Origin: an uncultured Clostridiaceae bacterium
Lineage (GTDB): Bacteria; Bacillota; Clostridia; TANB77; CAG-508
Length of the DNA stretch: 64,000 nt
Assembly (NCBI GenBank): GCA_948444845.1
Contig: CAOJVB010000003.1
Location: 12,723-76,722, forward strand
Reading direction: 5' to 3'
The notes beneath the pieces were generated by a model, which did no database searches, had not been told where the DNA came from, and was given only the letters and a program-made list of their open reading frames with translations. Both the position numbers and the translations under genes were made by a program. This document shows positions 15,223 to 44,153 of the stretch, one piece after another (the stretch's first letter is position 1; every line of letters begins with the position of its first letter).

Positions 15223-17559
15223 GTGCAAGAATTAATAGAAGGATTAAATGATAAACAAAAAGAAGCAGTATTACAAACAGAGGGACCATGTTTAGTAATA
15301 GCAGGTGCAGGAAGTGGTAAAACAAAAGTATTAACACACAAAATAGCATATTTAATGAGTGAAAAGAATGTACTACCTTGGAATATATTAGCAATAACAT
15401 TTACAAATAAAGCGGCAAGTGAAATGAAAGAGAGAATAGAAAAGCTAGTAGGTGATAATGCAAAAGATTTATGGATGGGAACATTCCACTCTATATGTGT
15501 ACGTATTTTAAGAAAATTTATAGATAGAATAGGTTTTGACTCCTCATTTATAATATTTGATACATCTGACCAAAAAACATTAGTAAAGGAATGTTTAAAA
15601 GCTTTAAATATAGACGATAAAATGTTTTCAGATAGAAGTGTATTATCTGAAATTAGTAATGCAAAAAATGAAATGTTAGAACCAAAAGCTTATAAAATAA
15701 AATATGATGGAGACTTTAGAAAAGCTAAAATTGGTGAAATATATGAATTATACCAAAAAAGACTAAAAGAAAATAATGCAATAGATTTTGATGACATTAT
15801 AAACTATACTATAAAAATACTAACAGAAAATGCAGATGTATTTGAATACTATACAGACAAATTCAAATATGTATTAGTAGATGAATACCAAGATACAAAC
15901 AAAGCACAATTTACACTAGTATCAATATTAGCATCAAGATATGGAAATATAACAGTAGTAGGAGATAACGATCAAGGAATATATTCTTTTCGTGGCGCAG
16001 ATATTTCAAACATACTAAACTTTGAAAAAGATTTTCCAGGAACTACAATTATTAAATTAGAGCAGAATTATAGATGTACTGGAAATATTTTAAAAGCAGC
16101 AAATGCAGTAATTAAAAATAATGAGAATAAATATGATAAAAAACTATGGACAGAAAACGGAGAAGGCAACTTGCCAACTATTTATCAAGGTGATGATGAA
16201 TATGATGAAGCAAGGTATATAGTAGAACAAATAAACCATTTAAAAACAGAAGAATATTACAAATATTCAAACTTTTCAGTTTTATATAGAATGAATTCTC
16301 AATCAAGAGCTATAGAAGATATTTTAAACAGAGAGGGAATTCCTTACAAAGTAATAGGAGGCCTTAAATTCTATGAAAGAAAAGAAATAAAAGATGCACT
16401 TTGCTATTTAAGGCTAATTGCAAACACAGCAGATAATCTATCATTAAAAAGAATTATAAATGAGCCAAAACGTGGAATAGGAAAAACAAGTTTAGACAAA
16501 ATTAGTGAAATATCAGATAGAACAGGAACTTCTATGTATGAAATAATAAAAGAAGCTGATAAATACGAATTAAATAGAGTATTTGCAAACTCAAGAGAAT
16601 TTATAAACTTGATAGAAGAACTAAGAGCAAAAAAAGAAGAACTTTCAGTATCAGAATTATTAAGTGAAACTATGAAAAAGTCTGGTTACACAAAAGCATT
16701 AGAACTTGAAAATACTATAGAAGCACAAACGAGAATACAAAACTTAGAAGAACTTATGACTGTAGCAATAGAATTTGAAGAGCAAGAAGCAGAAAATACA
16801 TTAAATAATTTCTTAGAAGGAATAACATTATCATCTGATATTGATAACCTAGAAGAAACAGAAGAAATGGTTACACTTATGACACTTCATAGTGCAAAAG
16901 GTTTAGAATTCGAGACTGTATTCTTAGTAGGAATGGAAGAAGGAATATTCCCAGGATATAAAGTACTAGGAGAACCAAAAGAATTAGAAGAAGAAAGACG
17001 TCTATTTTATGTTGGAATAACAAGAGCAAAAGAACACTTATATTTAACATGTGCAAAACATAGAACAATATTTGGTTCAACAAGTTATAACTCAGTGTCA
17101 AGATTTATACAAGAAATTCCAGAAGAGCTATTAGAAGGATATGATAAAATGAAAGGCTCAAAAGAAGATGAATTTAAAGACTCAAGCTATGGATGGAGCT
17201 ATGGAAATAATTTTGCAGGAAAAGTTAAAACATATAAATTTGATGAAATGGCAGGAAGTCAAAAGCAGGTGGCGGGAAGTATAGCAGTGTTATCCACAAA
17301 CAATACAAAAAATGTGGATAGCAACAATTCATTTGCTTTTAGAACGCCAGAAAGTTTCTTAAATAATTTAAACAAACCAAAAACTCAAATAGATGTATCA
17401 AATTATAAAGCTGGGCAAAGAGTATACCATAAAAAATTTGGAGAAGGAACAATCAACTATGTAGAACGTGAAGGAGAAGACTTAAAAGTAGATATAAACT
17501 TTGATAAAGTAGGGCATAAGAGATTAATGGCGAAATTTGCAGGTTTAGAAATACTATAA
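15223..17559 (+). CDS. pcrA: ATP-dependent DNA helicase PcrA (UvrD/Rep family)
   Basis: GTG start. LNDKQKEAV..GPCLVIAGAGSGKTKVLTHKIAYL, TFTNKAASEM, VLVDEYQDTN, VGDNDQGIYSFRGA, LEQNYRC and TLHSAKGLEFETVFLVG are the helicase motifs. Length 778 aa. Confidence 0.92.
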   Translation: MQELIEGLNDKQKEAVLQTEGPCLVIAGAGSGKTKVLTHKIAYLMSEKNVLPWNILAITFTNKAASEMKERIEKLVGDNAKDLWMGTFHSICVRILRKFIDRIGFDSSFIIFDTSDQKTLVKECLKALNIDDKMFSDRSVLSEISNAKNEMLEPKAYKIKYDGDFRKAKIGEIYELYQKRLKENNAIDFDDIINYTIKILTENADVFEYYTDKFKYVLVDEYQDTNKAQFTLVSILASRYGNITVVGDNDQGIYSFRGADISNILNFEKDFPGTTIIKLEQNYRCTGNILKAANAVIKNNENKYDKKLWTENGEGNLPTIYQGDDEYDEARYIVEQINHLKTEEYYKYSNFSVLYRMNSQSRAIEDILNREGIPYKVIGGLKFYERKEIKDALCYLRLIANTADNLSLKRIINEPKRGIGKTSLDKISEISDRTGTSMYEIIKEADKYELNRVFANSREFINLIEELRAKKEELSVSELLSETMKKSGYTKALELENTIEAQTRIQNLEELMTVAIEFEEQEAENTLNNFLEGITLSSDIDNLEETEEMVTLMTLHSAKGLEFETVFLVGMEEGIFPGYKVLGEPKELEEERRLFYVGITRAKEHLYLTCAKHRTIFGSTSYNSVSRFIQEIPEELLEGYDKMKGSKEDEFKDSSYGWSYGNNFAGKVKTYKFDEMAGSQKQVAGSIAVLSTNNTKNVDSNNSFAFRTPESFLNNLNKPKTQIDVSNYKAGQRVYHKKFGEGTINYVEREGEDLKVDINFDKVGHKRLMAKFAGLEIL

Positions 17560-17778
17560 AAATTTATATAAATGCTTAATGTAGAAAACTGTATATAAAA
17601 TATATTACAATTATATTACGATTATATTAAAATTGAATTAAAGTTGATTTGAAATATAGACAATTAAAAAACAATAGTATAAAATTAATAACATAAAATA
17701 TGAAAAATAGTAAAAAATATATAAGTATAAGTTTAATATAAAAAATAGTAAATAAGATATTTAAAAGAGAGGTTTGAT

Positions 17779-19449
17779 ATGAGAAAAGTATTAACAAAGG
17801 AAAAAAAAGTAAAAATAAGTATATTAATAGTAATAATACTAATTAGTATTTTATTTATATATTCATTATATAAAGTAAATATATTTCAAATACTAACAAA
17901 AGGAATAAATCAAGCAAAAAGGGAAGAAATACCAATAGAAACAAAAGCACAGTATCAAATAATGAAAGCAAATGGAGAAGACTACGAAATAGTAATAACA
18001 ATAGAAAACCAAAATGGAATAGAAAAAATAATAGGTGAAGATTTAAGCATACAAGGTAAAGGAAAAAATAAAATAGCAATAGATAAAAAAATGAAAGAGG
18101 GAGAAGAATACAAAATAAAAATAAAAGCAGTAGGAGAAGAAGAAGAAGAATATGTATTAATAGCAACATCTAAACCAATTATAACAATAACAAATATGGA
18201 CACAACAGGTGATGGAACGACAAAAACAGTAGAAATAGAGTATCCAAACAATGAAAAGTTAAAAAATTATTACAGTTTAGATGATGGAATAACATGGCAA
18301 GAATATAGTGGAGAAATAAATGCACTAGAAGTAGAAAATAGAACAATAAATGCAAAAGTAGAAGTAAAAGAAGGAAAAACAATACAAAAAACAGGAGTAG
18401 AAGCAGTAATAGTAAGTGATAGTTTATTGTCAGCAGCAGAAAAAGCAGTTATAGGAAATAATAGATATTATAGAATAGCAATAAAAGATGAAGTATACCC
18501 AGTACACACATATGTAGAAAATGGTGACACAACATATACAGCTAATAAAAGTTATGGAGATGCTAACGATGTTGGTACAGCAAGTGCAAATGCTAAAAAT
18601 ATGGTATTAGTAAAAGTAAATGGAGACCTAACAATAAATAGTGGAGTAACAGTAACATCATATGGAACAAGTTATGGAGGAACAAAGGGAATGCTACTAT
18701 ATGTAACAGGAAACTTAGAAAACAGAGGAACAATAACAATGACAGCAAGAGGAGCAAAAGCAGAAGGTCAAAATGTATACTTATGGAAAAACGCAGATGC
18801 TTCTCAAAGAGGAGAGTACGAATTTGTACCTAAAGTAGGTGCCTCTGGAGGACTGGAGAAGAGTTATGGATTTTTTCCTGACGTAACGTTAATTGGAAAC
18901 CCAGGAGAAAATGGAACTTCTAGAAAAACAGGAGGAGGCTCCTCAGGAAGTATTCGAATGAGGACCACCACTTCAGTGTCAGGAAGAGGAGGAAATGGAA
19001 CATCTTACTCTGGAGGAACTGGTAGTGGAGGGGCATATCATGGAACAACTCAGAACGGTAGTGACAATGGAGGAGCAGGAGGAAACTCTATAAATCCCAA
19101 ATCATGGGGAGGAGGGGGCGCAGGAAACCCAGGAGGGACTGGGGGTTCGATTGCTCCAGCTAGTTGTGGAACAGGTGGGCTGTTAATATTATATGGTAAT
19201 TCAATAGAAAACAAAGGAACAATATCTTCAAATGGAACAAATGGGGGTATCGACAGCAACGCACCTGGAGGCTCATCTGGAGGAGGAAGTATAAATATAT
19301 TTTATAATGAAGGTATAACAAAAGGAACAATTTTAGCAACAGGAGGTAAGGTTGCAAGTCAACCTTATGTTCCTGTAGGAGGAGCGGCAGGAGGAAATGG
19401 CTGTATATCAGTAGGAACTATAATAGAAGGAACATATTCAGCAAAATAA
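17779..19449 (+). CDS. membrane-anchored glycine-rich surface protein, paralog 1 (556 aa)
   Basis: SD AGAGAGG. N-terminal TM. Conserved ectodomain, then about 200 aa of Gly-rich C-terminal module with islands SGRGGNGTSYSGG, GSDNGGAGGN, GTGGLLILYGN, GGSSGGGSINIFYNE. Has its own upstream promoter-like region. Confidence 0.8.
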   Translation: MRKVLTKEKKVKISILIVIILISILFIYSLYKVNIFQILTKGINQAKREEIPIETKAQYQIMKANGEDYEIVITIENQNGIEKIIGEDLSIQGKGKNKIAIDKKMKEGEEYKIKIKAVGEEEEEYVLIATSKPIITITNMDTTGDGTTKTVEIEYPNNEKLKNYYSLDDGITWQEYSGEINALEVENRTINAKVEVKEGKTIQKTGVEAVIVSDSLLSAAEKAVIGNNRYYRIAIKDEVYPVHTYVENGDTTYTANKSYGDANDVGTASANAKNMVLVKVNGDLTINSGVTVTSYGTSYGGTKGMLLYVTGNLENRGTITMTARGAKAEGQNVYLWKNADASQRGEYEFVPKVGASGGLEKSYGFFPDVTLIGNPGENGTSRKTGGGSSGSIRMRTTTSVSGRGGNGTSYSGGTGSGGAYHGTTQNGSDNGGAGGNSINPKSWGGGGAGNPGGTGGSIAPASCGTGGLLILYGNSIENKGTISSNGTNGGIDSNAPGGSSGGGSINIFYNEGITKGTILATGGKVASQPYVPVGGAAGGNGCISVGTIIEGTYSAK

Positions 19450-19504
19450 TAAAATAAAAAGGGGATATTTTAACGTAAAAATGTTGAAATGTCCTCCTTC
19501 TTTT

Positions 19505-19605
19505 ATATAATAAGAAAGTACGCTATTTTAAGTTAAGATAATGTAGGGGCGTATCCTCTAAGTCTGGCCATGTGGTAAAGTCACTTTTGTTCTATAATAT
19601 AGAAT
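19505..19605 (+). repeat. T-element, one full unit
   Basis: TATAATAAGAAAGTACGCTATTTTAAGTTAAGATAATGTAGGGGCGTATCCTCTAAGTCTGGCCATGTGGTAAAGTCACTTTTGTTCTATAATATAG. Confidence 0.8.
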
Positions 19606-19681
19606 AAAAAAATATATAAAAATTGTATGAAAATGAAAAAAACGTCTATAATAAAAATAAAAAAGAAAGGAATGATTATAT

Positions 19682-19870
19682 ATGGCAAACCTAACACAAG
19701 TAGAATTACAAAACTTACGACATTTAATAGGAGCTCATGAAACATCATATCAAAAATTAAACACGTACGCATCACAAGCAGTAGATCCACAAATAAAGCA
19801 AATGTTTACAAAATCAGCACAAGAAGCACTAAACACAAAACAAAAATTAATGTCATTTTTAAATAATTAA
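19682..19870 (+). CDS. CotF-like small spore coat protein (62 aa)
   Basis: MANLTQVELQNLRHLIGAHETSYQKLNTYASQAVDPQIKQMF matches the Coat_F pattern (LT..E...L.......KY..YA.Q..DPQLKQ.F) as I recall it. SD AAAGGAA upstream. Confidence 0.6.
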   Translation: MANLTQVELQNLRHLIGAHETSYQKLNTYASQAVDPQIKQMFTKSAQEALNTKQKLMSFLNN

Positions 19871-19999
19871 GGTGCAATATAGAATTAGGATACTTACTTT
19901 TGTGAAGTTTATTCTTTCCTAGTTGTATTATTTGAAAGAATAAGTAATTCAAAAGGAAATGTTTCTAATATGTAAAAAATGGAAAAAGGAGAGATTATT

Positions 20000-20243
20000 A
20001 TGGATGAAAAAACAATGGTAAACGATATTTTAAGTAATGTAAAGGCAAGTCTTACAACATACCAAATGGCTATTTCAGAATCAGAAAATATACGGTTTAA
20101 GGCAAACAATACAACAAATAAGAAATAATGATGAGAGTTTTCAATATGAATTATTTAAAGTAGCTCAAGCTAAAGGATATTATAAGCCAGCTTCACCAGC
20201 TACTGTAACAGAAATACAAACTGTAAAAAATGAATTACAGTAA
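20000..20243 (+). pseudogene. CotF-like spore coat protein, frameshifted
   Basis: ATG 20000 after AAAGGAGAG gives MDEKTMVNDILSNVKASLTTYQMAISESEN.. and stops at 20126-20128. The +1 frame continues ..YGLRQTIQQIRNNDESFQYELFKVAQAKGYYKPASPA.. to TAA 20241-20243. A 1-nt indel lies at or near the A-run 20085-20088. Confidence 0.6.
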
Positions 20244-20495
20244 ACTTTATAAAATGAAATTATCTACACTAAAATATAATGTGTAGATAATTTTATTTCA
20301 CAATTATTGCTATTAAAAAAATAAAAAAGTGATAAATATTATGAAAATAAATATATATAAATTAATTTATAATATTGACATAGAAAAAATAATAGTATAA
20401 ACTTAATGACATAAAAATGAAAAATACAAACATAATAAAAATAAACGAAGCCAATAAAAAAATAATAAATAATATATTTAAAAGAGAGGTTTAGT

Positions 20496-22199
20496 ATGAG
20501 AAAAGTATTAACAAAGGAAAAAATATTAAAAATAAGTATATTAATAGGAACAATACTAGTTGGTATTTTATTTATATACTCATTATATAAAGTAAATATA
20601 TTTCAAATACTAAGAAATGGAATAAATGAAGCAAAAAGGGAAGAAATACAAATACAAACAAAAGCACAATATCAAATAATGAAAGCAAATGGAGAAGACT
20701 ATGAAATAGTAATAACAATAGAAAATCAAAATGGAATAGAAAAAATAGTGAGTGAAGACTTAAGCATAGAAGGAAAAGGAAAAAATAAAATAGCAATAGA
20801 TAAAAAGATGAGAGAAGGAGAAGAGTATAGACTAAATATAAAAGCAGTAGGAGAAGAAGAGGAAGAATATGTATTAATAGCAACATCACAAATACCAGTT
20901 ATAACAATAACAAATATGGATGTAACAGGAGATGGAACAACAAAAGGAGTGAAAATAGAATATCCAAATAATGAAAAGTTTAATAATTATTATAGTTTAG
21001 ATGATGGAATAACATGGCAAGAATATAGTGAAGAAATAACCGCATTAGAAATAGAAAATAAAACAATAAATGCAAAAGTAGAAGTAAAGGAAGCAAAAAC
21101 AATACAAAATGTAGCAGAAGTACAAGCAATAATAGTAAGTGATAGTTTATTATCAGCAGCACAAAAAGCAGTAATAGGAAATAATAGACATTACCGAATA
21201 GCAATAAAAGATGAAGTATATCCAGTGCACACATATGTAGAAAATGGAGACACAACATATACAACAAATAAAACTTATGGAGATGCAAACGATGCTGGCA
21301 CAGCAAGTGCAAATGCTAAAAATATGGTATTGGTAAAAGTAAATGGAGACCTAACTGTAAACAGTGGAGTAACAGTAACATCATATGGAACAAGTTATGG
21401 AGGAACAAAAGGAATGTTACTATATGTAACAGGAACCTTAGAAAACAGGGGAACAATAACAATGACGGCAAGAGGAGCAAAAGCAGAAGGTCAAAATGTA
21501 TACCTATGGAAAAATGCGGATGCTTCCCAAAGAGGAGAATATGAATTTGTACCTAAAATAGGTGCATTAGGAGGTACATCGGTAAGTTTGAGCTCAAGCT
21601 ATAGAACTGGAAGAGCTGGAGCAACAGGAGGAAATGGAACATCTAGAAAAACAGGAGGAGGAGCATCAGGAGCAGTTTATTGTGATTTTACATCAAGTAC
21701 AGCAACATCAGGAAGAGGAGGAAATGGAACATCCTATTCTGGAGGATCAGGTGGCGGAGGAGCAAGAAATGGCACAAATGCTCAACAAGGAAGTGACAAT
21801 GGAGGAGCAGGAGGAAATGGAGCACGACCATCTAACTATGGCTCAGGAGCAGGAGGAGGAGCAGGAAACCCAGGAGGAGGTTCATCAGGTGGACAAAGTA
21901 ACTCGGGAGGAAATGGAACAGGCGGACTATTAATACTATATGGTAATACAATTCAAAACAGAGGAACAATATCTTCAAATGGTGCAGTAGGAGGTTCAGC
22001 ATATTATGCAGGAGGAGGTTCATCAGGAGGAGGAAGTATAAATATATTTTATAATGAAGCTATAACAAGAGGCACAATTTCCGCAGCAGGAGGAAGTGTA
22101 AGTGGAGTTATAGGATATGAGGGATATAGAGGTGGCGCAGGAGGAAGTGGCTCTATATCAATAGGAAATATAGTAGAAGGAACATATTCACCAAAGTAA
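20496..22199 (+). CDS. membrane-anchored glycine-rich surface protein, paralog 2 (567 aa)
   Basis: Same architecture as paralog 1. By eye the first ~350 aa are about nine-tenths identical to paralog 1. The Gly-rich module differs by many indels. Confidence 0.8.
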   Translation: MRKVLTKEKILKISILIGTILVGILFIYSLYKVNIFQILRNGINEAKREEIQIQTKAQYQIMKANGEDYEIVITIENQNGIEKIVSEDLSIEGKGKNKIAIDKKMREGEEYRLNIKAVGEEEEEYVLIATSQIPVITITNMDVTGDGTTKGVKIEYPNNEKFNNYYSLDDGITWQEYSEEITALEIENKTINAKVEVKEAKTIQNVAEVQAIIVSDSLLSAAQKAVIGNNRHYRIAIKDEVYPVHTYVENGDTTYTTNKTYGDANDAGTASANAKNMVLVKVNGDLTVNSGVTVTSYGTSYGGTKGMLLYVTGTLENRGTITMTARGAKAEGQNVYLWKNADASQRGEYEFVPKIGALGGTSVSLSSSYRTGRAGATGGNGTSRKTGGGASGAVYCDFTSSTATSGRGGNGTSYSGGSGGGGARNGTNAQQGSDNGGAGGNGARPSNYGSGAGGGAGNPGGGSSGGQSNSGGNGTGGLLILYGNTIQNRGTISSNGAVGGSAYYAGGGSSGGGSINIFYNEAITRGTISAAGGSVSGVIGYEGYRGGAGGSGSISIGNIVEGTYSPK

Positions 22200-22310
22200 T
22201 AAACAAAATAAATGTTATAGATTATAAAAATATATGATAAATAATATTATATTGAGTACTTTAAAAAAAGATATATAAGTAAAAAAATTAAGTAAATATT
22301 ACAAAGTGAA

Positions 22311-22347
22311 AATAGTGGAATAGTTAAATATTCCATTATTTTTTTGT
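22311..22347 (+). terminator. intrinsic terminator after glycine-rich paralog 2
   Basis: AATAGTGGAAT-agttaaat-ATTCCATTATT-TTTTTT, with one G-U pair. Confidence 0.75.
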
Positions 22348-22541
22348 TATTATTAAAAAATCAATTTTGGATTAATAGAAAAGTAGTACTTGTTTGCATG
22401 AAAAAGTTACTTTTGAATTAATAATGAAAATATAAAAAATAAAAAATTAAAATTTAATAAATTATATTGATAAATGTAAATAAATAAACAATTAAGGGTA
22501 TAATAGTTAAAGAAGTATAAAAAAGATTTTTAATAAATTTA

Positions 22542-22570
22542 TTGACAGAAAAATAAATTAGTGATAAAAG
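22542..22570 (+). promoter_or_regulatory. sigma-A-like promoter for glycine-rich paralog 3
   Basis: TTGACA, a 17-nt spacer ending in TGA (extended -10), then TAAAAG. Paralogs 1 and 2 have TAGACA/TTGACA boxes at equivalent positions (about 17656 and 20375). Confidence 0.45.
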
Positions 22571-22601
22571 TAAATAAAAAAACAAAAGAGAGGAAAAAGA
22601 A

Positions 22602-24500
22602 ATGGAAAGAAAAATACAAAAAAATAAACTACTAAGAATGGCTATAATATTAATAATAATAGTATTAATTTTTATTATAGGTGCTATTACTATGAAAAAA
22701 GCAGGTATTATACAAATGTCTGAGAACAAAATACAAGAATTAAGAAAAGCAGAAATAGAAACAGACATACAAAACATAATAGATACGACAAAACAAGAAA
22801 TTATGGAAACCCAAGGGAGAGAAGCAACATTAACAGATTTAAAAGAAAAGCTTAGGGAACAAGGATATGACTTAAATGAAACAACTGGAGAAGTAAAATA
22901 TAATGAACATTATGTAAAAATAAATAGTGACCTAACCATAGCAAGTATAGAAGAAATAATAACAAAAGCAGAATGTAAAATAGCAAATGTAAATGGGGAT
23001 GAACTAGAAACAGTAATAACCATAGAAAACAGATATGGAATAGAAAAAATAATAACACCAGATGTAACTATAGAAGGTAATGGTAGAGAAAAGGTGGCTT
23101 TAGATAGAAAACTAGCAAATGGGGGAATGTATGAAATAAAAGTAAAACCCGTAGGAAAAGATATAGAAGAGCAGTACACAATATTAGCAGAAAAAGTACC
23201 TAATATAGTAGTAACAAACAAAGACACTACAGGTGATGGTAGCACAAAAACAGTAGAAATACAATATCCATTAACTGATAACGTTATAAATTATTATAGT
23301 TTAGATGATGGAGCAACATGGCAGGAGTATACAGGAGGTTTAAATGTATTAGAAGAAGATAATAAAACAATAGCAGCAAAAACAGAAGCAAAAGAAGAAA
23401 AAGTAAAGGGGAAACTTATAGTAGGAAAAACAGGAGAAGAAATAGCATTAGTAGTAAGCAAAAGTTTACTAACGGCAACAGAAAAAGCAATAATGAAAGA
23501 TAATACACATTATAGAATAGCAATAAAAGATGAAGAATATAGAGTGCATACATATGTGCAAAATGAAGACTTAGTATTAGAACAAAATAAAGCATATGGA
23601 GATGGGGCAGATGTAGGAACAGCAAGTGAAAATGCAAATAGTATGGTAATAGTAAAAGTAAATGGAAACTTAACAATAAACAGTGGAGTGACACTAACAT
23701 CATATGGAACAACATATGGAGGACCAAAAGGAATGTTATTATATGTAACAGGAAAACTACAAAATAATGGAACAGTAACAATGACAGCAAGAGGAGCAAA
23801 AGCACCAGGTCAAAACGTATACTTATGGAAAAATGAAAATAATACCTATGAATATATTCCAAGCGTTGGAGGTTCAGGCGCAGCTGGAAGCCAAGGTGTA
23901 ACGTATGACAACGGGCGTACAGGAGGGACAGCAGCAGCAGCTTCTAACAGAAGAACAGCTGGAGGAGGCGGAGGCGGAGGCCAAGGCAATTACAACAACG
24001 GTACTTTGGATGGACGAGGAGGAAATGGAAGTGCTGGAACGTCATATTCAGGTGGAAGCGGCGGAGGCGGAGGCTCTTATAGCATAGCCTCAAATGCAGC
24101 TGGAAATGGAGGAGCAGGAGGAAATGCAAAAGTCAATAGACCAAGTGGAGGCTATTCAGTAGGTGCAGGAGGCGGTGCAGGAAATCCGGGAGGAGCACAA
24201 GCAAGCCTAAAAGGAAGTGCACAAGCTGGTTCAAATGGAACAGGAGGATTATTAATAATATATGCCGACACCTTCGAAAATAATTCAACAATATCAGCAA
24301 ATGGAAGTGCTGGAGGTTCAGCTTATAGAGCAGGAGGAGGAGGCTCAGGAGGAGGCTCAGTAAATATATTCTGCAAAACTAATAATAAAACAGGAACAAT
24401 AACTGCTACAGGAGGAGCAGGAGGAATAGGAACAAGAGGTGGACAATCAGCAAATGGAGGTGCTGGTGGAACAGGCTCAGTAACAATAGGAAATATATAA
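22602..24500 (+). CDS. membrane-anchored glycine-rich surface protein, paralog 3 (632 aa, more divergent, extra N-terminal segment)
   Basis: Shares the blocks ..VITIENRYGIEKI.., TNKDTTGDGSTKTVEIQYP, YYSLDDGATWQEY, HYRIAIKDEEYRVHTYV, VKVNGNLTINSGVTLTSYGTTYGGPKGMLLYVTG, GTGGLLIIY and GGGSGGGSVNIF. Confidence 0.8.
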   Translation: MERKIQKNKLLRMAIILIIIVLIFIIGAITMKKAGIIQMSENKIQELRKAEIETDIQNIIDTTKQEIMETQGREATLTDLKEKLREQGYDLNETTGEVKYNEHYVKINSDLTIASIEEIITKAECKIANVNGDELETVITIENRYGIEKIITPDVTIEGNGREKVALDRKLANGGMYEIKVKPVGKDIEEQYTILAEKVPNIVVTNKDTTGDGSTKTVEIQYPLTDNVINYYSLDDGATWQEYTGGLNVLEEDNKTIAAKTEAKEEKVKGKLIVGKTGEEIALVVSKSLLTATEKAIMKDNTHYRIAIKDEEYRVHTYVQNEDLVLEQNKAYGDGADVGTASENANSMVIVKVNGNLTINSGVTLTSYGTTYGGPKGMLLYVTGKLQNNGTVTMTARGAKAPGQNVYLWKNENNTYEYIPSVGGSGAAGSQGVTYDNGRTGGTAAAASNRRTAGGGGGGGQGNYNNGTLDGRGGNGSAGTSYSGGSGGGGGSYSIASNAAGNGGAGGNAKVNRPSGGYSVGAGGGAGNPGGAQASLKGSAQAGSNGTGGLLIIYADTFENNSTISANGSAGGSAYRAGGGGSGGGSVNIFCKTNNKTGTITATGGAGGIGTRGGQSANGGAGGTGSVTIGNI

Positions 24501-24524
24501 ACTATAATATATACTAAATATATT

Positions 24525-24562
24525 AAATAGTGGGATAATTAGACATTCCACTATTTTTTTTA
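24525..24562 (+). terminator. intrinsic terminator after glycine-rich paralog 3
   Basis: AAATAGTGGG-ataattagacat-TCCACTATTT-TTTTT. The stem sequence is related to the paralog 2 terminator. Confidence 0.7.
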
Positions 24563-24830
24563 TTATAGAAAAGTACGATAGTTTAACTTAAAATTGTAGG
24601 GGGCGGCTATTAGCTCATCCGCGTGGCGAAGGCACTTTTATTCTAGTATAGTAAGAATTTATATTTTCTTTAAGCAAATTCGCTGGAGCGTGGACAGCGG
24701 CGGCACTTTCTCTACATCTATTTATTTTAAACTATTATCCCTTTAGTTAACAGAAGTGATTCAGAAGTAGGGTAGCCTTTGTGGAAATACCTCGTAGGAT
24801 AAGCCACCACTGTGCCTGTTATTCTATGGC
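24563..24830 (+). repeat. T-element array (three units of different subtypes)
   Basis: Unit 1 is ..AAAGTACGATAGTTTAACTTAAAATTGTAGGGGGCGGCTATTAGCTCATCCGCGTGGCGAAGGCACTTTTATTCTAGTATAG. Unit 2 is the degenerate ..GGAGCGTGGACAGCGGCGGCACTTTCTCTACA. Unit 3 is subtype B, AGTAGGGTAGCCTTTGTGGAAATACCTCGTAGGATAAGCCACCACTGTGCCTGTTATTCTATGG. Confidence 0.75.
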
Positions 24831-25060
24831 AAATATTTAAATAACAGAAAAATAAATTATAACTAATTTAAACCAACTTTTGCTATTTAATACACACGAA
24901 ACTATGCTATTCCCTAGCAAAAGTCGAAAAAGGACATTTTTTGTAAAATAATTATAATACAAATATAAAAAAAGAAAAAATAGATAAAAAAAGCCTTATT
25001 TCCGTATAAAAAAGTAAAAGTAAGTGTTTGTAATAATTACAGAATTGGCAATTTCTTTAA

Positions 25061-25089
25061 TTGACTTTAAATCAAAAATTTTTTATAGT
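25061..25089 (+). promoter_or_regulatory. sigma-A-like promoter for the giant adhesin gene
   Basis: TTGACT (25061-25066), a 17-nt spacer, then TATAGT (25084-25089), about 40 nt upstream of ATG 25130. Confidence 0.5.
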
Positions 25090-25129
25090 AGAGTTACATG
25101 AAAAAACAATAAAAGGAGAGGTAAAGAAA

Positions 25130-28100
25130 ATGTCAAAAGAAAAAATTAGAAAAGCAGTAAGCAATAATCAAAATAGAATATTAGCAATGCTTGTTATGAT
25201 AATTTCTATTTTATTAATAGTAGGCATAACTGTAAATGCTAATAAAAATGATGATTATGCAGTTGAAATTAAAGACAATGGTGAACAAAACATTGCTACA
25301 AATGAAGACTATGATAGCGATAATCCAAAAAATTATGATTCTAGCATAACTAAGAAAATAGTAGCAGATACACCAAAAAGTTTAACATATGAGGTGCAAG
25401 TTAAAAACTTAGCTCCCAATATAGTGCCAGAGCTAGCTATCGTAATAGATAGTTCTAGAAGTATGGGCATAAATGATATAGATAATAAAGTAAAGGAAAA
25501 AGTTATACAATTAGTAACTGAACTTAGAACAAACTCACCAAAAACAAAGATATCTATATCTACTAATACAGGAGTAAAAGTAGGGTTATCAACTCAAACA
25601 GTAGATCAGTATACTACTGCTATAAATGGTATAAGCTTTTCAGATGGAGAAAGTGTAGGAAAAGGTATAGACTATGCTACAAGTACACTATCAGCAGGAG
25701 ATAGAGGAAAATACTTAGTAATATTCTCAGATGCAACTGATTCACTAAAAGAAAAATTAGAAGACTTAACAGTGAATAGACATTTGGAAATATTTTCTAT
25801 ATTAACTGACATTACTAATAATGAGTATGAAACAAGTACACTAATGGGAACAAACCAAATGATAAGTGATGTTCAAGATTTTTCTAATTTATACTATAAA
25901 ACTAATACTAGTATGGTAGATGTTAAATTAACAGATATATTTACTAGCGAAGTAAATGAATATTTTGAATTTACAGAAGTTTTTAAAGATACTAATGTAG
26001 AGATTGAAAAGACCTCGAATGGATATATATTAAAATGTAATGAAATAAAAGCAGGAGAAACTAAAACATATAAATATACATTAACATTAAAAGATGATGC
26101 AAAAATAGATGCGGGAAAAATATATAGAGAGTTAAATACAAGTGATAATTTAACTATAGAATATAAAGATAGAGATGAGCAAAGTCATACATACAATATG
26201 GAAACAACTCCTACATTTGTAATATGTAAAAAATATAGCTTAACTATAAAAGCAGTTAGTGAAAAAAGTAATGACTTACCTTTAGAGAACTTAGATGTAA
26301 AAGTAGTAGGAACAACAGTTACAGGTCAAGATGAAAATGGAAATGATATAGTAAAAACTGTATTTGACGAAACATTAACAACAGATTCAAAAGGAAGAAT
26401 ATTAATAGATAACTTAAAAACATTAGGAGATATTACATTTGAAATAAAACCAATAGTTAATAGGTTTGGATATCAAGAAACATCAGCAACTCAAGTTATA
26501 GTACATAATGACCCAACAGGTGTAGGAACAATATGGGCAGAATCAGATATCAGAACACCAGATGTAGATGTTGTAAATAGAAACATAACAGTATTATTAC
26601 CAATATCAGTAGAAACATATGATATGGAAATAGAAACTGTAGACTTAACCAATAATAACATTAAATTAGGAAATGCAGAATATAGATTAATTCAACCTAA
26701 ATTAAATAGTAAATATGAAATGGAAGCATTGTATGGAACTTCAGGACCAGATGGCAAATTAGTATTTAAACCAGCAGTAATGACTAAAGATGGTTCATAT
26801 CAATATATATTAACACAAATGAATAAAGTTCCAGACTATGATCCAATGGGAAATGCTACTATAATTGTAACATTTGAAAATGGAAAAGTAACAAAAATAG
26901 CACATCAATATAATGAAAATGTTGAAACAGAACTAATAAGCAATACACAAACAAAAGTAATAGTAGGAAATGCTTCATTACAAGATGATACATTTAATTT
27001 AGAAATAAACTTAAGTGATGAATTAACAGGAGAAAAATTATTTGGTGGTATATATGACATATTAGTTGAAAGAACAACTCCAGCAGGAGACCCAGTGTCA
27101 TCACTATTAAGTGGATATATGACAGATAATGATGGAAAAATAAACATTGAAACACCAGGAACAGGATATATAAGACTAAAAATAGTAGAAACTAGTCCAA
27201 AAGCAGGATATGTTGCAGACCCAACTGAAAAGGAATTAACCTTTTTCAGAGATGGTGGAACTGTACAATATATAACAGCTAAAAATCCACCAACAATGGA
27301 TGCAATAGCAGATTCAGATAATAACAAAATAATAATTAACTTTAAAAGCAAAGTAGCAAATGAGCAAAATAGAATACAAGTACGATTAATGGATGAGCAA
27401 GTACATACTGACAATATACCAGGAGTAACATTATCATTAAATAAAGTTGGAAGTTCAGACATAATATATGCTACAACAAATAGAGATGGTATAGCAAACT
27501 TCATAATACCAAATGAAGATATAGGAAGCTACCAATATGAAATTGGTTTATTCTCAGCAGTACCAAAAGGATATTTAACACCAGCTACTACACAATTAGG
27601 AGTAATAACAGTTACTTATGATGGAACTAGATATATGGTTGATGCAGGAGCAGTAAGTACTAATGTACCAACAATGAATGTAAGCTATAACCAAAGTACT
27701 GAAACAGGTTTCATATATCATACTGCACGAGTAGACCTAAGCTTAGATGTAGACCCAGCATATGCATACCAATTAAAAATAAACTTACTAGATGGAAGCA
27801 CAATGAGAGGTTTAGCTGGAGGAAAATATAGTATATTAATGGAATCAGATGGAGTAGAAGTAAAATACTTATCAGGAAAACTTACAGACAGTAATGGTGA
27901 CTATACTACAAGGATAGTAGGTGGAGGACAAAGTATAGTAATAACAATTACAGAAACAGCAACATTACCAGGTTATATATTAAATACAACTACTCAAGTA
28001 ATAGAATTAGAATTAACAGATGCAGGTTATGTAGTTGCAAACAGCTCACCAAATATATATGACCCATCAGCAGGAAGCTATATAGGAGTAACAACATCAC

Positions 28101-31100
28101 CTTCAGGCAAAGAATTTGTATATCATGACATAAACAATAGTAAAACAGGTGCAAACACAATATTAAACTTACATGTAAACAAAATGGACCTAAATGATTT
28201 CTTAGTAGCAGGAGTAAGAGTAAAATTAAGCTCACCAACACTACTAAGAGCAGATGGAACTACACTAGACTCTATGTATGATGTATTAGATGATAATGGA
28301 ACTGTTATAGGAAGAAGAGATTATTATGTAACAGACCAAAATGGATATTTTGAAGAACTAGCAATAAAAGTAAAAGGTGACGAATTAACTAATGGAGAAA
28401 GAATAGATTACCTATATATGAATGAACTAGATGCAGACGGAAACATTATACCAAACACAGATATTACATTTAAGTTAACATTTAGACAAAATAAAAACAC
28501 ATATGTAGTAGAAGTAACAAACGTAGAAGCAACTTGGGGAAATAGACTAGTAAAAGGTAAAACATATAGCTCAAGAGAAACAGATGTAGCATACGAAAGT
28601 GATGTATACTTAGACATATATACAAACTTCGATGATGTAGGAAACTTCTCAATAGACTTAAAGAAATTAGACAAGGATGGCAAAAAATTATCAGGAGCAA
28701 AATATGATATAGTAGTAATGAGACCAGATTCTACAACATTAGTAAGAAGAGATATAAATGTTACAGACAGTGTAGAATTAGATGGAATACTAGTAAGTGA
28801 AGGAACAAAAATAGAAATAACAGAAAAACAAGCACCAATAGGATATAATATAAATGAATACACAGAAGTAATAACAATAACAAAAGTAGACTCAATAACA
28901 GGTCTAGTAGAATGTAGACTAGAGCCAAGTTCATACACACCATCAAGAGCAACAATATCAGCAACTCAGCCAATAGTAAGTTCAGATGGAAGATATAAAC
29001 TATGTATTACATTAGATATGATAGATTATGAATCTGATACATTTAAACTAGGAATAACAGCTAAAGATTCTACAACGGGAAATGGAATTAAAGACTATAG
29101 ATTTAAAGCTGAAACAAGTCAAGGAGCACAAAAGAATTTAGCACCAACCGATAGCAATGGAAAAACTTCAAACTTATTAGGTGCAAACTATAAAATAGAT
29201 AATTTTGAAGTAATATACACAATAGATACTTTAAGGGTAGCAGACTACTATAAAAGATTAGTAAACCCAATTGAGTTAAAAGTAATATTTGACTTAAATG
29301 GAAATGTAAAAACAGCTGAAACAGATGCCGCAAACATAGGACAACCAGGTTATGGAACAATTTGGAGCATAGTAGGTACAAATACAATAGGTGGAAATGA
29401 TATAGACTTAGACATAAAAATAGACCCATGTGATCCACTAGTAGTAAATATTCAAACAACAGATACAATAACAGGAAATCAATTAACAAATATAGCTTAT
29501 CAAATAGTACCAAGTGTAAACTTACCAGCAACAGGAAATACACAAATAACAGTTGGATATGTATTACCAGGAGGAGCACAAACATACACAATAAAACAAA
29601 CAAATGCAGCTTCAATAGGAAATTACAAAGCAGTACCAGAACAAAGAATAAAAGTAACATATGATATAGATGGAAATGTAACAGCAGTAGATGAATTAAC
29701 AAATGAAGTACACGAAGTATCAATAAATGGAAAACAAATAACAATAAAAATAGATATAGAACCAGAAGTACCATTTACTATGAAAAACGTAGCATACTTC
29801 CATAATGATGTAAATATTGGAAATGCAAAATTTGAAATAAGTGTAGATGATGACAATACAAAACAATTACTAACAACTTCATTAGGAGAAGACGTAAAAT
29901 ATACAGGTAAATTTGAAACAGATACAAGCAAAATATATACAGTAAAACAAATAAGTGCAGGAACAGGTTATGCAAAAATAAAAGATTTCCAAATAGAAGT
30001 ATTCTTTGATGCAGACAGAAATATTACAAAGGCTGAAATAGTAGGAAATAAAGATGTAGGAAATGTAAATGAATTTGTAGAATTTGTAGAAGTAAGTGTA
30101 ACAAGACCATCAACAGCAGCAGATAGAGGATACAACGGAAATGACAAAGGAATAGTAAATATTACAGTTAAGAGCTACCCACAAGTTGAATTCAAAATTA
30201 AGAATGTTGATAGAAGAGATGACACAATAAATCTTCAAGGAACAGTTTATAAAGTAGAATCTACTATAGATACTAGAGATGAAAGCATAGTTACAGGAAG
30301 CGATGGAATAGGAACAGCAAAACTAGATAAAAGTGGATATAGCACACACGTTAAATATACAATTACAGAAATGCAACCAGCAGCTAGATATCAAACATTA
30401 GCAATACCAGCTGTAATAGATGTAGAATTTAATGAAAGAGGTTATATTGTAAATACTACAATAGAAAAGAGAGATGATGTAGTAACAGTAGTAAGACCAG
30501 AAGTGTTTGACCCAGAAGATAACTTTAAATTAGACATAAAAATAAAGAGTAATCCAGAACTTAAAGTAAACATTACAAAAGTAGATGAAGAAGACAATAC
30601 TATATTAATACCAAATGTAAGTTTTGAAGTAACAGCAAGAATTCTAAAAGACAATTTAGCAGAATTTAGTACAGAAGACCAAGATAAATTAACATTAAAT
30701 ACATCAACATTAACAGAAGAAAACTACTTAGCACAAGTATTGGATAGACTAAAGATAGACAGAGAAGATGTAGAAAGCTTAAGAAAGAGCATAGGAGTTA
30801 AAAACGTAATAGAAGAACTAAAGAATAGCAATAATTTAACAGCAGCAGAAGAAGACGAAATAAATTCACAATTAAATGATAACTTAAGAATTAACAAAAT
30901 AGTATCTTTAGGAAAACGTACAAAAACACAAATAAACCAAAAAATAGCAGAAGTAACTAATAGAACAATTATAGATAAATTAATAGAAGAGGACAAAACT
31001 TCTAATGACGCTGTAAATGACCTATTAAACAAAGTTAAAAATCAAATAAGATTAGATGTAGATAATATTGTAACAAATGCAAATGGATTAGGCGTAGCAT

Positions 31101-34100
31101 ATATGGATAAAACATTAGCAAATAAAACAATAGAATATACATTAAAAGAAACAAGAAAAGTAGCAGGATATGATTGGTTAGATGAAGTAGTAATATTAGA
31201 AATAACATATGATGAAAATGGAAAAATGGTAGCAGATAACCCAGTAAGAGTAGTTTCAGGGGCAATTGATATAACAAATGTAAATCAACAAGGCTTTGAA
31301 ATATCAGCAACAGTTAAAAATAAACCAAGTAAAGAAATACAAATACACCTATCAGTAGAAGATGTATATGACTCAAATAAAAAACTTGAAGTAGCAAAAT
31401 TTGATGCATACTTAGTTTCAACTGAAGCAGATGATAGACTAACATTTTCACCAGATAATGACTTTAGAGTAGCATTAGAAACAGGTTCAGTAACATCAGG
31501 AACAGGATTAACAACAGCACATGGAGAAGACACAGAAAGTATGGGTGTATATGACAGAGGAGCAGGTTCAAGATTATTAAGACTAGTACAAAAACAAACA
31601 CCAAGCGCATACTACTTAGGAAATGACAAATTTGATAGTGTTTATCAATCTATTCAATATGCATTACTTGTAAATGTAAGTTTTGATGATGAAGGTCGTA
31701 TAACAGGCACAAGTTTACATTCACCAGGTAAAGATTCAATATATATTGGATATATAGCAGATGGAAGATATATACAAGTATCAAATACAAGAAATACTAT
31801 AAACATAACAATTAAATATTACCCAATGTTACAAGTACAAATGCAAACAGTGGATATGTACACTAAACAAAGTTTAGCAGCAAATTATACAATAGATACA
31901 CGTTTATGGGGTACATCATGGCAACCAGATTCAATAGTAAGTGCAGGATATATAAATCCACTTTTCACAACTTGGTGGGATGGAGTACATACTTATGGAT
32001 ATGACCATTATGGTAGAACATATAGTGCTGGATATACAACAAGCGCATCATTAGCTTCTTTAGAACAAGCACCAAGAGTTGCAATAGCACCAACAGATGC
32101 AGATAGATTCCCAGAAAATAAAAATCCTAATAAAGACAGGAAAGAAAGAACATTATATGTATATGAAAATGCAGAACCAAATTCACCAGTACAATATCAA
32201 ACATATTTACCAAGACATGTAACAAGGTCAGCACAATATTTAATAGCAACATTAAAAGTAAAATATGATGATATAGGACAAGTAAAAGATGTAGAAGTAA
32301 TACAAGAATATTCATCAACAAATATAACATCAGGTTTCACAAAAATAGTAAAAGCAACAGTAAATCAATACACAATAGGAATAACAATAGAATATGCACC
32401 AATAACAACAATAAATGCAACAGTTATAGATGAAGTAAGTGGAGCAGGACTTTCAGGAATAAGAGTTAACCCTTACTTAGGAGGAACAAGTGTAACAAAT
32501 ACATCTTATGAATATAGAACAACATTATATTATACAACAAATAGTAATGGTAGAACAGGATGGACATATTGGGGAGCAAGTCAACCAGATTCATTAAATA
32601 GATATATATTAGACACATACACAGTAGGTTCAGGATATGAAGGATACTTTGACCCAGGAAATATAATATTAGATGTAGCATATGATGACAATGGTAGAGT
32701 TTCAAGTGTTACACCAAAGAGTACAGACGCCTTTGGAGATGTAAATGCAATAAATATAAGCTGGGTAAATAATAACATTCAAGTTACAATTAGATATTCA
32801 AGGAAATTTAATGTAAAATTAAATAAAGTTGATTACTATGATAGTAACAAGAAACTAAACGCAGTATTTAATATAACATCTAGCAATGGAGTAGAAACAT
32901 CAATGGCTGCAAATACAACTACAACATTAGGAAAAGTATATCCAGGAAAATTAGTACAATATACACTATCTGAAACAACAGTACCAGCAGGATATATACC
33001 AGTAGAAAATATGGACATATTAGTACAATTTAATAACAATGGAACTATTAGAGCAGCAACATCTTTAAGTGATTACTATCAATTTGTAAGATGTGCGCCA
33101 CTAGACTCAGGAACAAATAGTTTAAAGAAGACAGACTTAGAAGCAAATATTAAAAATAAACCAAGGTTTGATGTTACAGTACAATTATCAGATAAATTCT
33201 ATCCAACATTAAAACTTGCAGGCGGAACATTTACAATGGAAAGCAGCAAAGGAGAAATAGCATCAGGAGGAGTTCAAACTGACAGTAATGGAATACTTGA
33301 AACTTATGTAGGAACAGTATATCCAAATGAAGAAGTAACATATACAATAAAACAAACAAACGTAATACCAGGTTATTACCAAAACAATACTGTAGTTAAA
33401 TTTAAAGTACACTTTAACGCAAATGGCAAATTAGATAATTATAGTTTAATAGATGGTAGTGATGTAGCAACAATAAATCCAACAGCACATATTGGAACAC
33501 AGAAGGTAAAAGTAAACATTACAAATAAACCAAAAGATGTTAGATTAGGAATTTACAAAAAGGATCAATTAGATGGTTCACCATTATCAGACATTAAATT
33601 TAAACTAACAACTATGGAAGACGGAAAGAAAGATATTGTAAAAGATGTTGTAACAAATGCAAATGGAACAGTAATAGACGTAGTAGATGAATTTAAAGAA
33701 TTAGCAGGAAGCAACAGAGTTGTAACATATAAGATATCTGAAATAGAAGCAGCACCAACATATAGAAAGATACAAGACATAGTAATAAAAGTAACATATA
33801 AACCAGATGGAAGTATGTACCTATATGATGTAGTAAGTAACCCAAGCAATGTAGGAATAGAAATGGCTACAAATGGACAAATAAAATATTTAGATAATAC
33901 ACCAATACATATTAAACTTACAATTCCAAACGACAACGCATATGACTTAATAATTAAAAACGAAGATAAAAACTTACCAGGTTTAGGAATTGAAGGAACT
34001 GTATATGATGTAATAATAGATGGAATAGTTCAAAGCCCTATAACTACAAATGCAAATGGTATAGCAAAAATTGCAAACCAAACTCAAACAGGTGAAATTA

Positions 34101-43900: not shown

Positions 43901-44153
43901 AGGAACAGGTTACAAACTAAAAGTAGAATATAAAGGAACAGAATATGAATATGAAGTAGCCGTAAGAGGAGATATAGATGGAAATGGAAAAATAACCGCA
44001 ACAGACCTATCAACTCTAAACCAAGCTGTAATCAAAAAAATAACATTAACAGGAATAAGGCAAAAAGCAGCAGATATAGATTATAATGGACAAATAACAG
44101 CAACAGATTTATCAACATTAAACCAAGCTGTAATCAAAAAAATAACATTATAA
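40997..44153 (+). pseudogene. decayed surface protein gene: signal/TM - RCC1-like repeats - InlB-B-repeat (Flg_new)/MucBP-like modules - dockerin
   Basis: ATG 40997 after GGGGGA gives MNKVIKKIITLQLVIITIIVIVI.. There is a frame change at A6 (41101-41106), an in-frame TGA at 41263-41265, and a second frame change at A7 (41347-41353). The remaining long frame runs to 44153 with W-G-x-N..GQLG-type RCC1 blades, F.GWYENE.C.G......YYAKW repeats and a double dockerin. Confidence 0.75.
43968..44150 (+). other. type I dockerin-like module
   Basis: GDIDGNGKITATDLSTLNQAVIKKITL and ADIDYNGQITATDLSTLNQAVIKKITL. The two halves share a 30-nt identical DNA stretch. Confidence 0.75.

Follow-up and report, generated by a model that had tools for sequence, protein, structure and literature searches.

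Tandem membrane-anchored proteins of an uncultured Clostridiaceae bacterium carry an undescribed glycine-rich head domain with a putative ligand-binding role

The window analysed here, a stretch of 64,000 nucleotides from an uncultured Clostridiaceae bacterium (assembly GCA_948444845.1, contig CAOJVB010000003.1), encodes three consecutive membrane-anchored proteins, referred to as paralogs 1 to 3, each ending in a Gly-rich head domain of about 360 residues. The head is an undescribed domain family with a confidently predicted fold and without any significant structural neighbor. On balance, we find it probable that it acts as a surface-displayed, ligand-binding head carried on a membrane anchor and stalk. 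The three open reading frames (ORFs) are all intact and lie exactly where a first-pass annotation, made from the sequence alone, had placed them; each protein is present, unnamed, in public collections:

17779–19449, + strand: paralog 1, 556 residues, with a transmembrane anchor, a helix, two immunoglobulin (Ig)-like domains and the C-terminal Gly-rich head (approximately 18388–19446); ORF and alignment, with an exact, unnamed copy in public collections
20496–22199, + strand: paralog 2, 567 residues, the copy that was modelled; ORF and AlphaFold2 model
22602–24500, + strand: paralog 3, 632 residues, a diverged copy with its head at approximately 23409–24497; ORF and 54% identity to paralog 1

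With an alignment of 91 sequences as input, AlphaFold2 returned a full-length model of paralog 2 with a pLDDT (predicted local distance difference test) of 94.3 and a pTM (predicted template modelling score) of 0.87, in which the following parts were delimited:

20514–20591, + strand: signal-anchor transmembrane helix (residues 7–32), with five Lys/Arg residues before it and a second helix (residues 35–49) after it; DSSP assignment of the model and residue counts
20661–21086, + strand: tandem Ig-like beta-sandwich domains (residues 56–128 and 135–197), the second with an Asp-box-like YYSLDDGITWQEY; model strands, Foldseek and sub-threshold Pfam matches
21108–22196, + strand: head domain (residues 205–567, about 360 residues), the mobile unit that defines the family; model of the module alone, its duplication in the relative P0025 and its occurrence in many architectures
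21561–21923, + strand: Gly-rich insert of the head (residues 356–476, about 120 residues), with conserved Gly motifs alternating with hypervariable segments; model and alignment

Residues 205–567 modelled alone formed one compact unit (pLDDT 96.5, pTM 0.94). A conserved ectodomain block and a Gly module had earlier been described as separate parts; because residues 205–567 are modelled as a unit with a pTM of 0.94, the blocks YRIAIKDE..., NMVLVKVNGDLT... and GMLLYVTG... instead form one domain together with the Gly region. The boundaries are backed by homologues, in which the unit from residue ~206 onward aligns in other architectures, with two copies present in P0025. The model of the head contains five repeats of a 7–11-residue strand followed by a 3–4-residue strand (277–283/286–288, 307–317/320–322, 478–488/491–493, 514–524/527–529 and 553–560/563–566). 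These rungs, and the beta-helices found among the weak PDB neighbors other than phage gp38 (see below), favor the beta-solenoid that had been suggested from the sequence. Long beta-strand rungs from the N- and C-terminal parts of the head flank the Gly insert, which shows isolated bridges at most and no regular secondary structure in DSSP, yet has a pLDDT of 91–99. Polyglycine-II helices appear to DSSP as confidently placed, Gly-dominated segments without secondary structure, and from the model we infer that the insert is polyglycine-II-like. The dominance of Gly over the C-terminal ~200 residues was borne out, Gly being the most frequent residue (27.5–32.6%) in the last 218–227 residues of paralogs 1–3, downstream of the YLWKN motif.

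No significant match to any full-length paralog was found in Pfam, NCBIfam or PHROGs, the best sub-significant results being phrog_6202 “tail fiber” (E = 1.3e-4, paralog 3 alone) and a sub-threshold BNR match, and the head module and its sub-regions matched nothing in Pfam even at E ≤ 10. PDB sequences were matched neither by phmmer nor by hmmsearch with the 91-sequence profile. Foldseek comparison of the head with the PDB yielded nothing at E ≤ 1e-3; the best neighbor was the receptor-binding domain of gp38 from phage PP01, which was non-significant (E 0.18, TM scores 0.16/0.21), and all other matches had E > 2, several of them being beta-helices and one S16 gp38 (E 9.9). The weak beta-helix neighbors comprised MinC, HpmA, FwdC, tapirin and SufD (E ≥ 2.8, TM scores ≤ 0.24), and right-handed beta-helix enzymes and adhesins (pectate-lyase-like, TPS, tapirin) gave no significant Foldseek match and no Pfam beta-helix family at E ≤ 10. 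Among the predicted viral structures of BFVD, eight matches had E ≤ 1e-3, all with TM scores ≤ 0.34 and a root-mean-square deviation above 12 Å; judged by these values, the matches (giant-virus “collagen-like” and uncharacterised phage proteins) were set aside as compositional or of low quality. A literature search for the signature motifs of the family likewise returned no match. Profile searches and Foldseek comparison of AlphaFold2 models thus agree with the first-pass description of a module of unknown type, as no characterised family claims the head.

The family itself is large. A word-indexed search identified 764 relatives, nearly all unnamed, and a profile search of 1.84 billion representative proteins gave 2,518 clusters (50% identity) at E ≤ 1e-3 and 768 at E ≤ 1e-30, with up to 17 matched stretches in single proteins; the giant multi-copy members carried essentially no Pfam domains. 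With almost no source-given names among these clusters, the family was rightly called undescribed. As for the “undescribed surface structure” of the first-pass annotation, its first half stands, whereas surface exposure, like the binding function and the polyglycine-II geometry, is what we infer. A scan of one genome per species, covering phylogenetic spread and copy number, found 240 stretches encoding relatives. Of the 77 loci listed, nearly all belong to Bacillota metagenome-assembled genomes (MAGs) that are uncultured, mostly gut-derived and labelled Clostridiaceae, Clostridia, Bacilli, Oscillospiraceae or “Tenericutes”; two loci bear Muribaculaceae labels, and several loci often come from a single genome.

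Architectures were counted over these 77 loci and the window, which together hold 96 module-bearing ORFs. Most of these have the architecture seen in the window, a transmembrane-anchored protein of about 550–630 residues; pilin-type N-termini occur in at least 14 of the 96, large ORFs of 1,000–7,000 residues in the 77 loci carry one to three copies each, and tandem arrays of module genes were seen in at least eight other loci. A survey of 238 collected homologous proteins, most with a complete N-terminus, found 107 plain transmembrane anchors, 17 type IV pilin N-termini of the canonical GFTLIE form and 19 of a GITL[IV]AL variant. The head domain is thus mobile and behaves as display cargo. Across the 78 loci there was no conserved operon partner or neighbor, the best cluster (an unannotated small secreted protein) being present at 11, and the protein therefore probably acts on its own. 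Among 64 near-full module copies in other MAGs, 11 are split across frames (loci L004, L009, L037, L041, L054, L064 and L072), mostly by breaks within the GGA-rich Gly region, and in L064, an array of at least five mostly broken copies, also at module position ~92. The three copies of the window are intact. The split copies could reflect assembly error, decay or slippage-based switching.

The head alignment (81 rows) has 53 Gly columns that are at least 80% conserved, grouped into the motifs RxTGGGxSG, GTSYSGGxGGG, NGGAGG, GGGAGNPGG, NGTGGLLIxY, GGGxSGGGSINIF and GGxGGxG. Hypervariable, indel-prone segments separate these motifs, and most differences between paralogs 1 and 2 fall there. In paralog 2 numbering, the hypervariable segments lie at residues 365–382, 394–404, 423–433, 441–451, 463–472, 521–525 and 535–545. 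Paralogs 1 and 2 are 78% identical overall, with 91% identity in the N-terminal part of the head module (dN/dS, the ratio of non-synonymous to synonymous rates, 0.16), 58% in the Gly insert (356–476) and 67% in the C-terminal rungs; paralog 3 shares 54% with paralog 1. Over the first ~350 residues paralogs 1 and 2 had been called near-identical, which is right in direction and somewhat overstated in degree (82–91% by region over residues 1–355). Values of dN/dS are 0.16–0.22 across the Ig domains and the N-terminal part of the head, and hot spots with dN/dS of about 1 were found at residues 370–409 and 522–560. The C-terminal half has a raised dS as well, which makes the pair mosaic.

Taken as a ligand-binding head, the domain may work as follows. 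The proteins would be type II (N-in, C-out) membrane proteins whose head is kept off the membrane by a short stalk, consisting of a single helix followed by the two Ig-like domains. Beta rungs of the N and C parts would form a solenoid-like scaffold on or within which the Gly insert packs, probably as polyglycine-II-type helices whose core is built by the conserved Gly motifs. The hypervariable segments between the motifs would form exposed loops that set ligand specificity, with tandem duplication diversifying the head. Three separately terminated paralogs differing mostly in their loops would let the cell display three specificities. Candidate ligands are glycans of host or dietary origin and polymers on the surface of other bacteria.

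The lower parts of the proteins fit such an arrangement. All three N-termini carry five or six Lys/Arg residues followed by a hydrophobic helix, and the short N-terminus with a single transmembrane anchor predicted in the first-pass annotation is reproduced by the one helix at residues 7–32 of the paralog 2 model. The Lys/Arg cluster precedes the helix, and the topology is therefore consistent with an N-in, C-out signal anchor. With the full model of paralog 2, Foldseek gave weak tandem-Ig matches for the stalk alone (SiiE, CD45 and GPVI; E 7e-3 to 2e-2). A chitobiase-C/FN3-like flavor had been ascribed to the ectodomain, and this stays sub-threshold in the second Ig domain here (BNR E = 0.0096; CHB_HEX_C, PF03174, E = 0.19; both below cut-offs), while the relative P0130 passes the Pfam cut-offs (CHB_HEX_C 28.9 bits versus 23.6; BNR 27.3 versus 27).

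The closest likeness in design is to the gp38 adhesins of Straboviridae phages, represented by S16 gp38 (PDB 6F45) and PP01 gp38 (PDB 9V85). In gp38, the N- and C-terminal parts form a beta-helix around a polyglycine-II sandwich of Gly-rich motifs, and the hypervariable segments are the receptor-contacting loops (PMC12032242). The head shares the alternation of conserved Gly motifs with hypervariable segments, and its Gly insert, confidently modelled without secondary structure, sits between beta rungs, although the structural match is weak (E 0.18, TM score ~0.2). It differs in length (about 360 residues versus about 250 for gp38) and in having more Gly motifs, lacks a gp37-attachment domain, and is instead encoded chromosomally in a bacterium as a fusion to a transmembrane anchor and Ig stalk. 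Stand-alone relatives do occur beside tail-fibre genes, unlike the chromosomal genes of the window: on three large viral contigs (110–214 kb) the module makes up nearly the whole of anchor-less proteins, as a tandem pair immediately following tail-fibre genes (phrog_6320, E 3e-41) on the 214-kb contig (L079, 6274–9539), flanked by genes for an endolysin and a virion structural protein on the 138-kb contig (L080, 7884–9194), and near a tail protein gene on the 110-kb contig (L081, 7983–9286). The likeness to Gly-rich domains of phage tail fibres that had been remarked upon from the sequence thus gained from three sides: the top, non-significant PDB neighbor, the same conserved/hypervariable alternation and the stand-alone copies in tail-fibre loci. 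Homology to gp38 was tried and rejected, since hhalign against seven gp38 sequences gave a probability of 0.3%, the profile found no PDB sequence and no GP38 Pfam match was obtained. As the sequence and structure tests were non-significant, the comparison is one of analogy, not homology.

Several observations weigh against a ligand-binding head of this design. The gp38 matches are non-significant by both routes (Foldseek E 0.18 with TM scores 0.16–0.21, hhalign 0.3%). Viral copies are few, with seven viral-contig matches to the module in IMG/VR and no match in a tblastn search of 50,697 GenBank phage records. The i/i+3 spacing of conserved Gly residues is weakly enriched (p = 0.02 under a uniform null, p = 0.11 with Gly clustering preserved). 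Made up of one helix and two Ig domains, the stalk may be too short to reach across a thick Gram-positive wall, in which case the head may act within or at the wall. Finally, D266, K281, K305, E350, R384 and Y414 are invariant or nearly so in the 91 sequences, and such non-Gly residues could equally mark a catalytic or metal-binding site.

The last point leads to an enzymatic reading, in which the head would be a beta-helix carbohydrate-active enzyme or another hydrolase or lyase, with polymers of the cell wall, the diet or the host as substrates. Its active site would be formed by the invariant charged and aromatic residues, and the Gly part would be a structural buttress. The beta-helix-like rungs and weak beta-helix Foldseek neighbors would suit such an enzyme, as would the near-invariance of N317 and N340 in addition to the residues above, and the neighbors in phage loci include beta-helix tailspike-like proteins. 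We nevertheless regard the reading as quite improbable: no Pfam or NCBIfam enzyme family matched even at E ≤ 10, no structural match to enzymes rose above noise in Foldseek, catalytic domains do not usually occur in multiple copies within giant repeat proteins, and variability peaks in the loops that separate conserved motifs, as is typical for recognition surfaces.

The shortness of the stalk relative to a Gram-positive wall, if correctly judged, would also suit a head that binds the cell’s own envelope or other copies of the head and has a structural role instead of adhering to foreign ligands, for example in attaching to or sensing the wall, in cohesion between cells or in hiding phage receptors. 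The window does carry envelope-biogenesis genes (LytR-CpsA-Psr, D-Ala-D-Ala carboxypeptidase, mreBCD and PBP2), and polymers on Gram-positive surfaces are the expected targets of the phage versions, so that the cellular copies might bind them as well. Neighbors are not conserved across the 78 loci, however, so that the linkage to wall genes seen here is probably incidental; pilin-type N-termini and giant proteins suggest reach away from the cell, and hypervariable loops together with tandem diversification are easier to reconcile with external targets that vary than with a self ligand that is conserved. Binding to the own envelope or to other heads is unlikely in our judgement.

Two other Gly-rich systems and one display system were compared. 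The head resembles the Gly-rich extracellular domain (GRD, PF12810) of ALK/LTK in being a Gly-rich extracellular domain. Identity with PF12810 was suspected as some homologues carry it, and was rejected: PF12810 is an extra C-terminal domain in P0114, P0087 and P0082, and in P0114 and P0087 it follows the region that aligns to the head. None of the three paralogs matched PF12810 at E ≤ 1 in full length, nor did the module and its sub-regions at E ≤ 10, and hhalign of the 81-row module profile against six PF12810-type domains from the relatives gave a probability of 0.3%. The mycobacterial PE_PGRS proteins have surface-associated, highly polymorphic Gly-rich domains that AlphaFold predicts to be compact rather than disordered (PMC9436101). 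The head is likewise Gly-rich, variable and predicted to be compact, a likeness to the polyglycine-II “sandwich” of PE_PGRS that was drawn from features only. It differs in lacking a PE domain, in lineage, in its motifs (such as GTSYSGGxGGG, GGGAGNPGG and NGTGGLLIxY) and in that the Gly region is embedded in a beta-strand scaffold. By analogy of design, the head may be grouped with the Gly-rich recognition domains of gp38, ALK/LTK and PGRS.

As for display, a functional adhesive module on a pilin is an established route to adhesion in modular pilins (PMC8179133). The paralogs resemble the modular type IV pilins PilB and PilC of Streptococcus sanguinis in displaying a module on an N-terminal hydrophobic helix and differ from them in being plainly signal-anchored, without the Gly(-1)/Glu5 prepilin motif. 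The pattern G|[FI]TL[IV]E is absent from all three (K-I-S-I-L-I or R-M-A-I-I-L is found instead), N_methyl (PF07963) gave no Pfam match in them, and no type IV pilus machinery was recognised among the annotated window genes or the neighbor clusters common to at least three loci. Among the relatives, pilin-type genes are scattered among housekeeping genes, at times beside other pilin-like genes, and not in pilus operons. The anchors of the three paralogs (17779–17930, 20496–20650 and 22602–22760) do resemble the GITL[IV]AL N-termini of relatives such as P0049 and P0183, K-I-S-I-L-I corresponding to G-I-T-L-I-A and the helix being followed by a similar G-I-[IL]-x-x-A-x-x-A-K segment. In hhalign, the comparison with this class gave a probability of 93% with the transmembrane segment and 4% without it. 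The resemblance suggests that the plain anchors may have arisen by loss of the cleavage site from a pilin-like helix.

A wider proposal, which we put forward tentatively and consider rather doubtful, is that the heads form a new superfamily of polyglycine-II/beta-solenoid recognition domains shared by gut Bacillota and large phages. It would be a cellular counterpart of gp38, displayed on membrane anchors, pilin-like helices and giant fibrillar proteins, with the Gly motifs serving as recombination points at which specificity loops are swapped between tandem paralogs. Whatever the fate of this proposal, the family comprises about 2,500 clusters (50% identity), largely from uncultured gut Bacillota; it is unnamed and lacks a model in Pfam or NCBIfam as well as a structural neighbor, yet its fold is predicted very confidently by AlphaFold. 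Should the head prove to be a variable recognition module, it would represent a major uncharacterised class of adhesin or receptor-binding domain in gut commensals and their phages, bearing on colonisation, on cell-cell and phage-host specificity and on the engineering of binders on a compact monomeric scaffold. It would then also be a fourth independent setting of Gly-rich, probably polyglycine-II cores, after gp38, the GRD of ALK/LTK and PE_PGRS.

The remaining features of the gene cluster concern paralog 3 and the signals around the genes:

22758–22952, + strand: insert of about 65 residues after the transmembrane helix (residues 53–117), specific to paralog 3 and common to a homologue subfamily (...IETQIQNIIDETKQ...); alignment and homologue N-termini
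19461–19496, + strand: terminator-like hairpin and T-run 3' of paralog 1; terminator scan
22309–22346, + strand: AT-rich terminator-like hairpin and T-run 3' of paralog 2, resembling that of paralog 3; sequence inspection
24525–24556, + strand: terminator-like hairpin and T-run 3' of paralog 3; terminator scan

The extra segment of paralog 3 had been put at about 100 residues, a length that the alignment reduces to about 65. Hairpin terminators had been noted after paralogs 2 and 3; both were found, and paralog 1 has one too. The hairpin at 22309–22346 is too AT-rich for the scanner and was recognised in the sequence itself. A GAGAGG Shine-Dalgarno sequence lies upstream of the ATG of each paralog. 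Each gene was also said to have its own promoter-like region; matches to promoter-like hexamers do exist, but they are no commoner than in shuffled AT-rich sequence (44 observed versus 37 ± 5.7 expected; the G+C content of the window is about 28%), and own promoters, and with them separate transcription of each paralog, are therefore putative, if plausible.

The 1-kb gap between paralogs 1 and 2 holds two small CotF-type genes (PF07875; 19682–19870 and 20000–20243), the second split by a frameshift near 20090 into halves that match Coat_F profile positions 1–29 and 32–62. Their presence in this spacer is the one feature that would speak for spore-surface or sporulation-specific proteins, which we regard as extremely improbable: coat proteins are not deposited via an N-terminal signal-anchor helix, no sporulation gene recurs near the homologues in the 77 other loci, one of the two CotF genes is itself frameshifted, and several carriers are labelled Bacilli or “Tenericutes” MAGs, some of them suspected to be non-sporulating.

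An intergenic element of about 110 nucleotides with the core AAGTACGMTAKTTTAASTTAARAT is repeated on the + strand at 19516, 24571, 39013, 39097 and 46232 (five copies versus none expected), just after the terminators of paralogs 1 and 3, twice after that of a giant gene, and once upstream of mreB. A small GTGGC-AAA-GCCAC hairpin and a T-run form its end, and the pairing appears to be kept through changes between the copies. The element had no Rfam match and its folding energy was no better than that of shuffled sequence; a small RNA, a leader or a REP (repetitive extragenic palindromic)-like element are candidates for its nature. Rfam gave nothing in the whole window at gathering thresholds, nor in 17400–25200 at E ≤ 1.

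The window is otherwise ordinary chromosome, with pcrA upstream and mreBCD, PBP2, minC, radC and mecA downstream, interspersed with genes for large surface proteins. The PBP2-type transpeptidase gene is split into overlapping ORFs (49168–50745 and 50693–51274), each with part of the Transpeptidase domain, which points to a frameshift (pseudogene or assembly error). Very large putative surface proteins are unusually numerous. Directly downstream of paralog 3, 25061–38956 encodes a protein of 4,631 residues with an N-terminal VWA domain, many SpaA-type prealbumin-fold repeats and a C-terminus that is dockerin-like by eye; a protein with RCC1 and Flg_new at 41580–44153 has a Pfam Dockerin_1 match, and two adjacent giant ORFs (53226–58196 and 58215–63473; 1,656 and 1,752 residues) carry SdrD_B/DUF11-type repeats.

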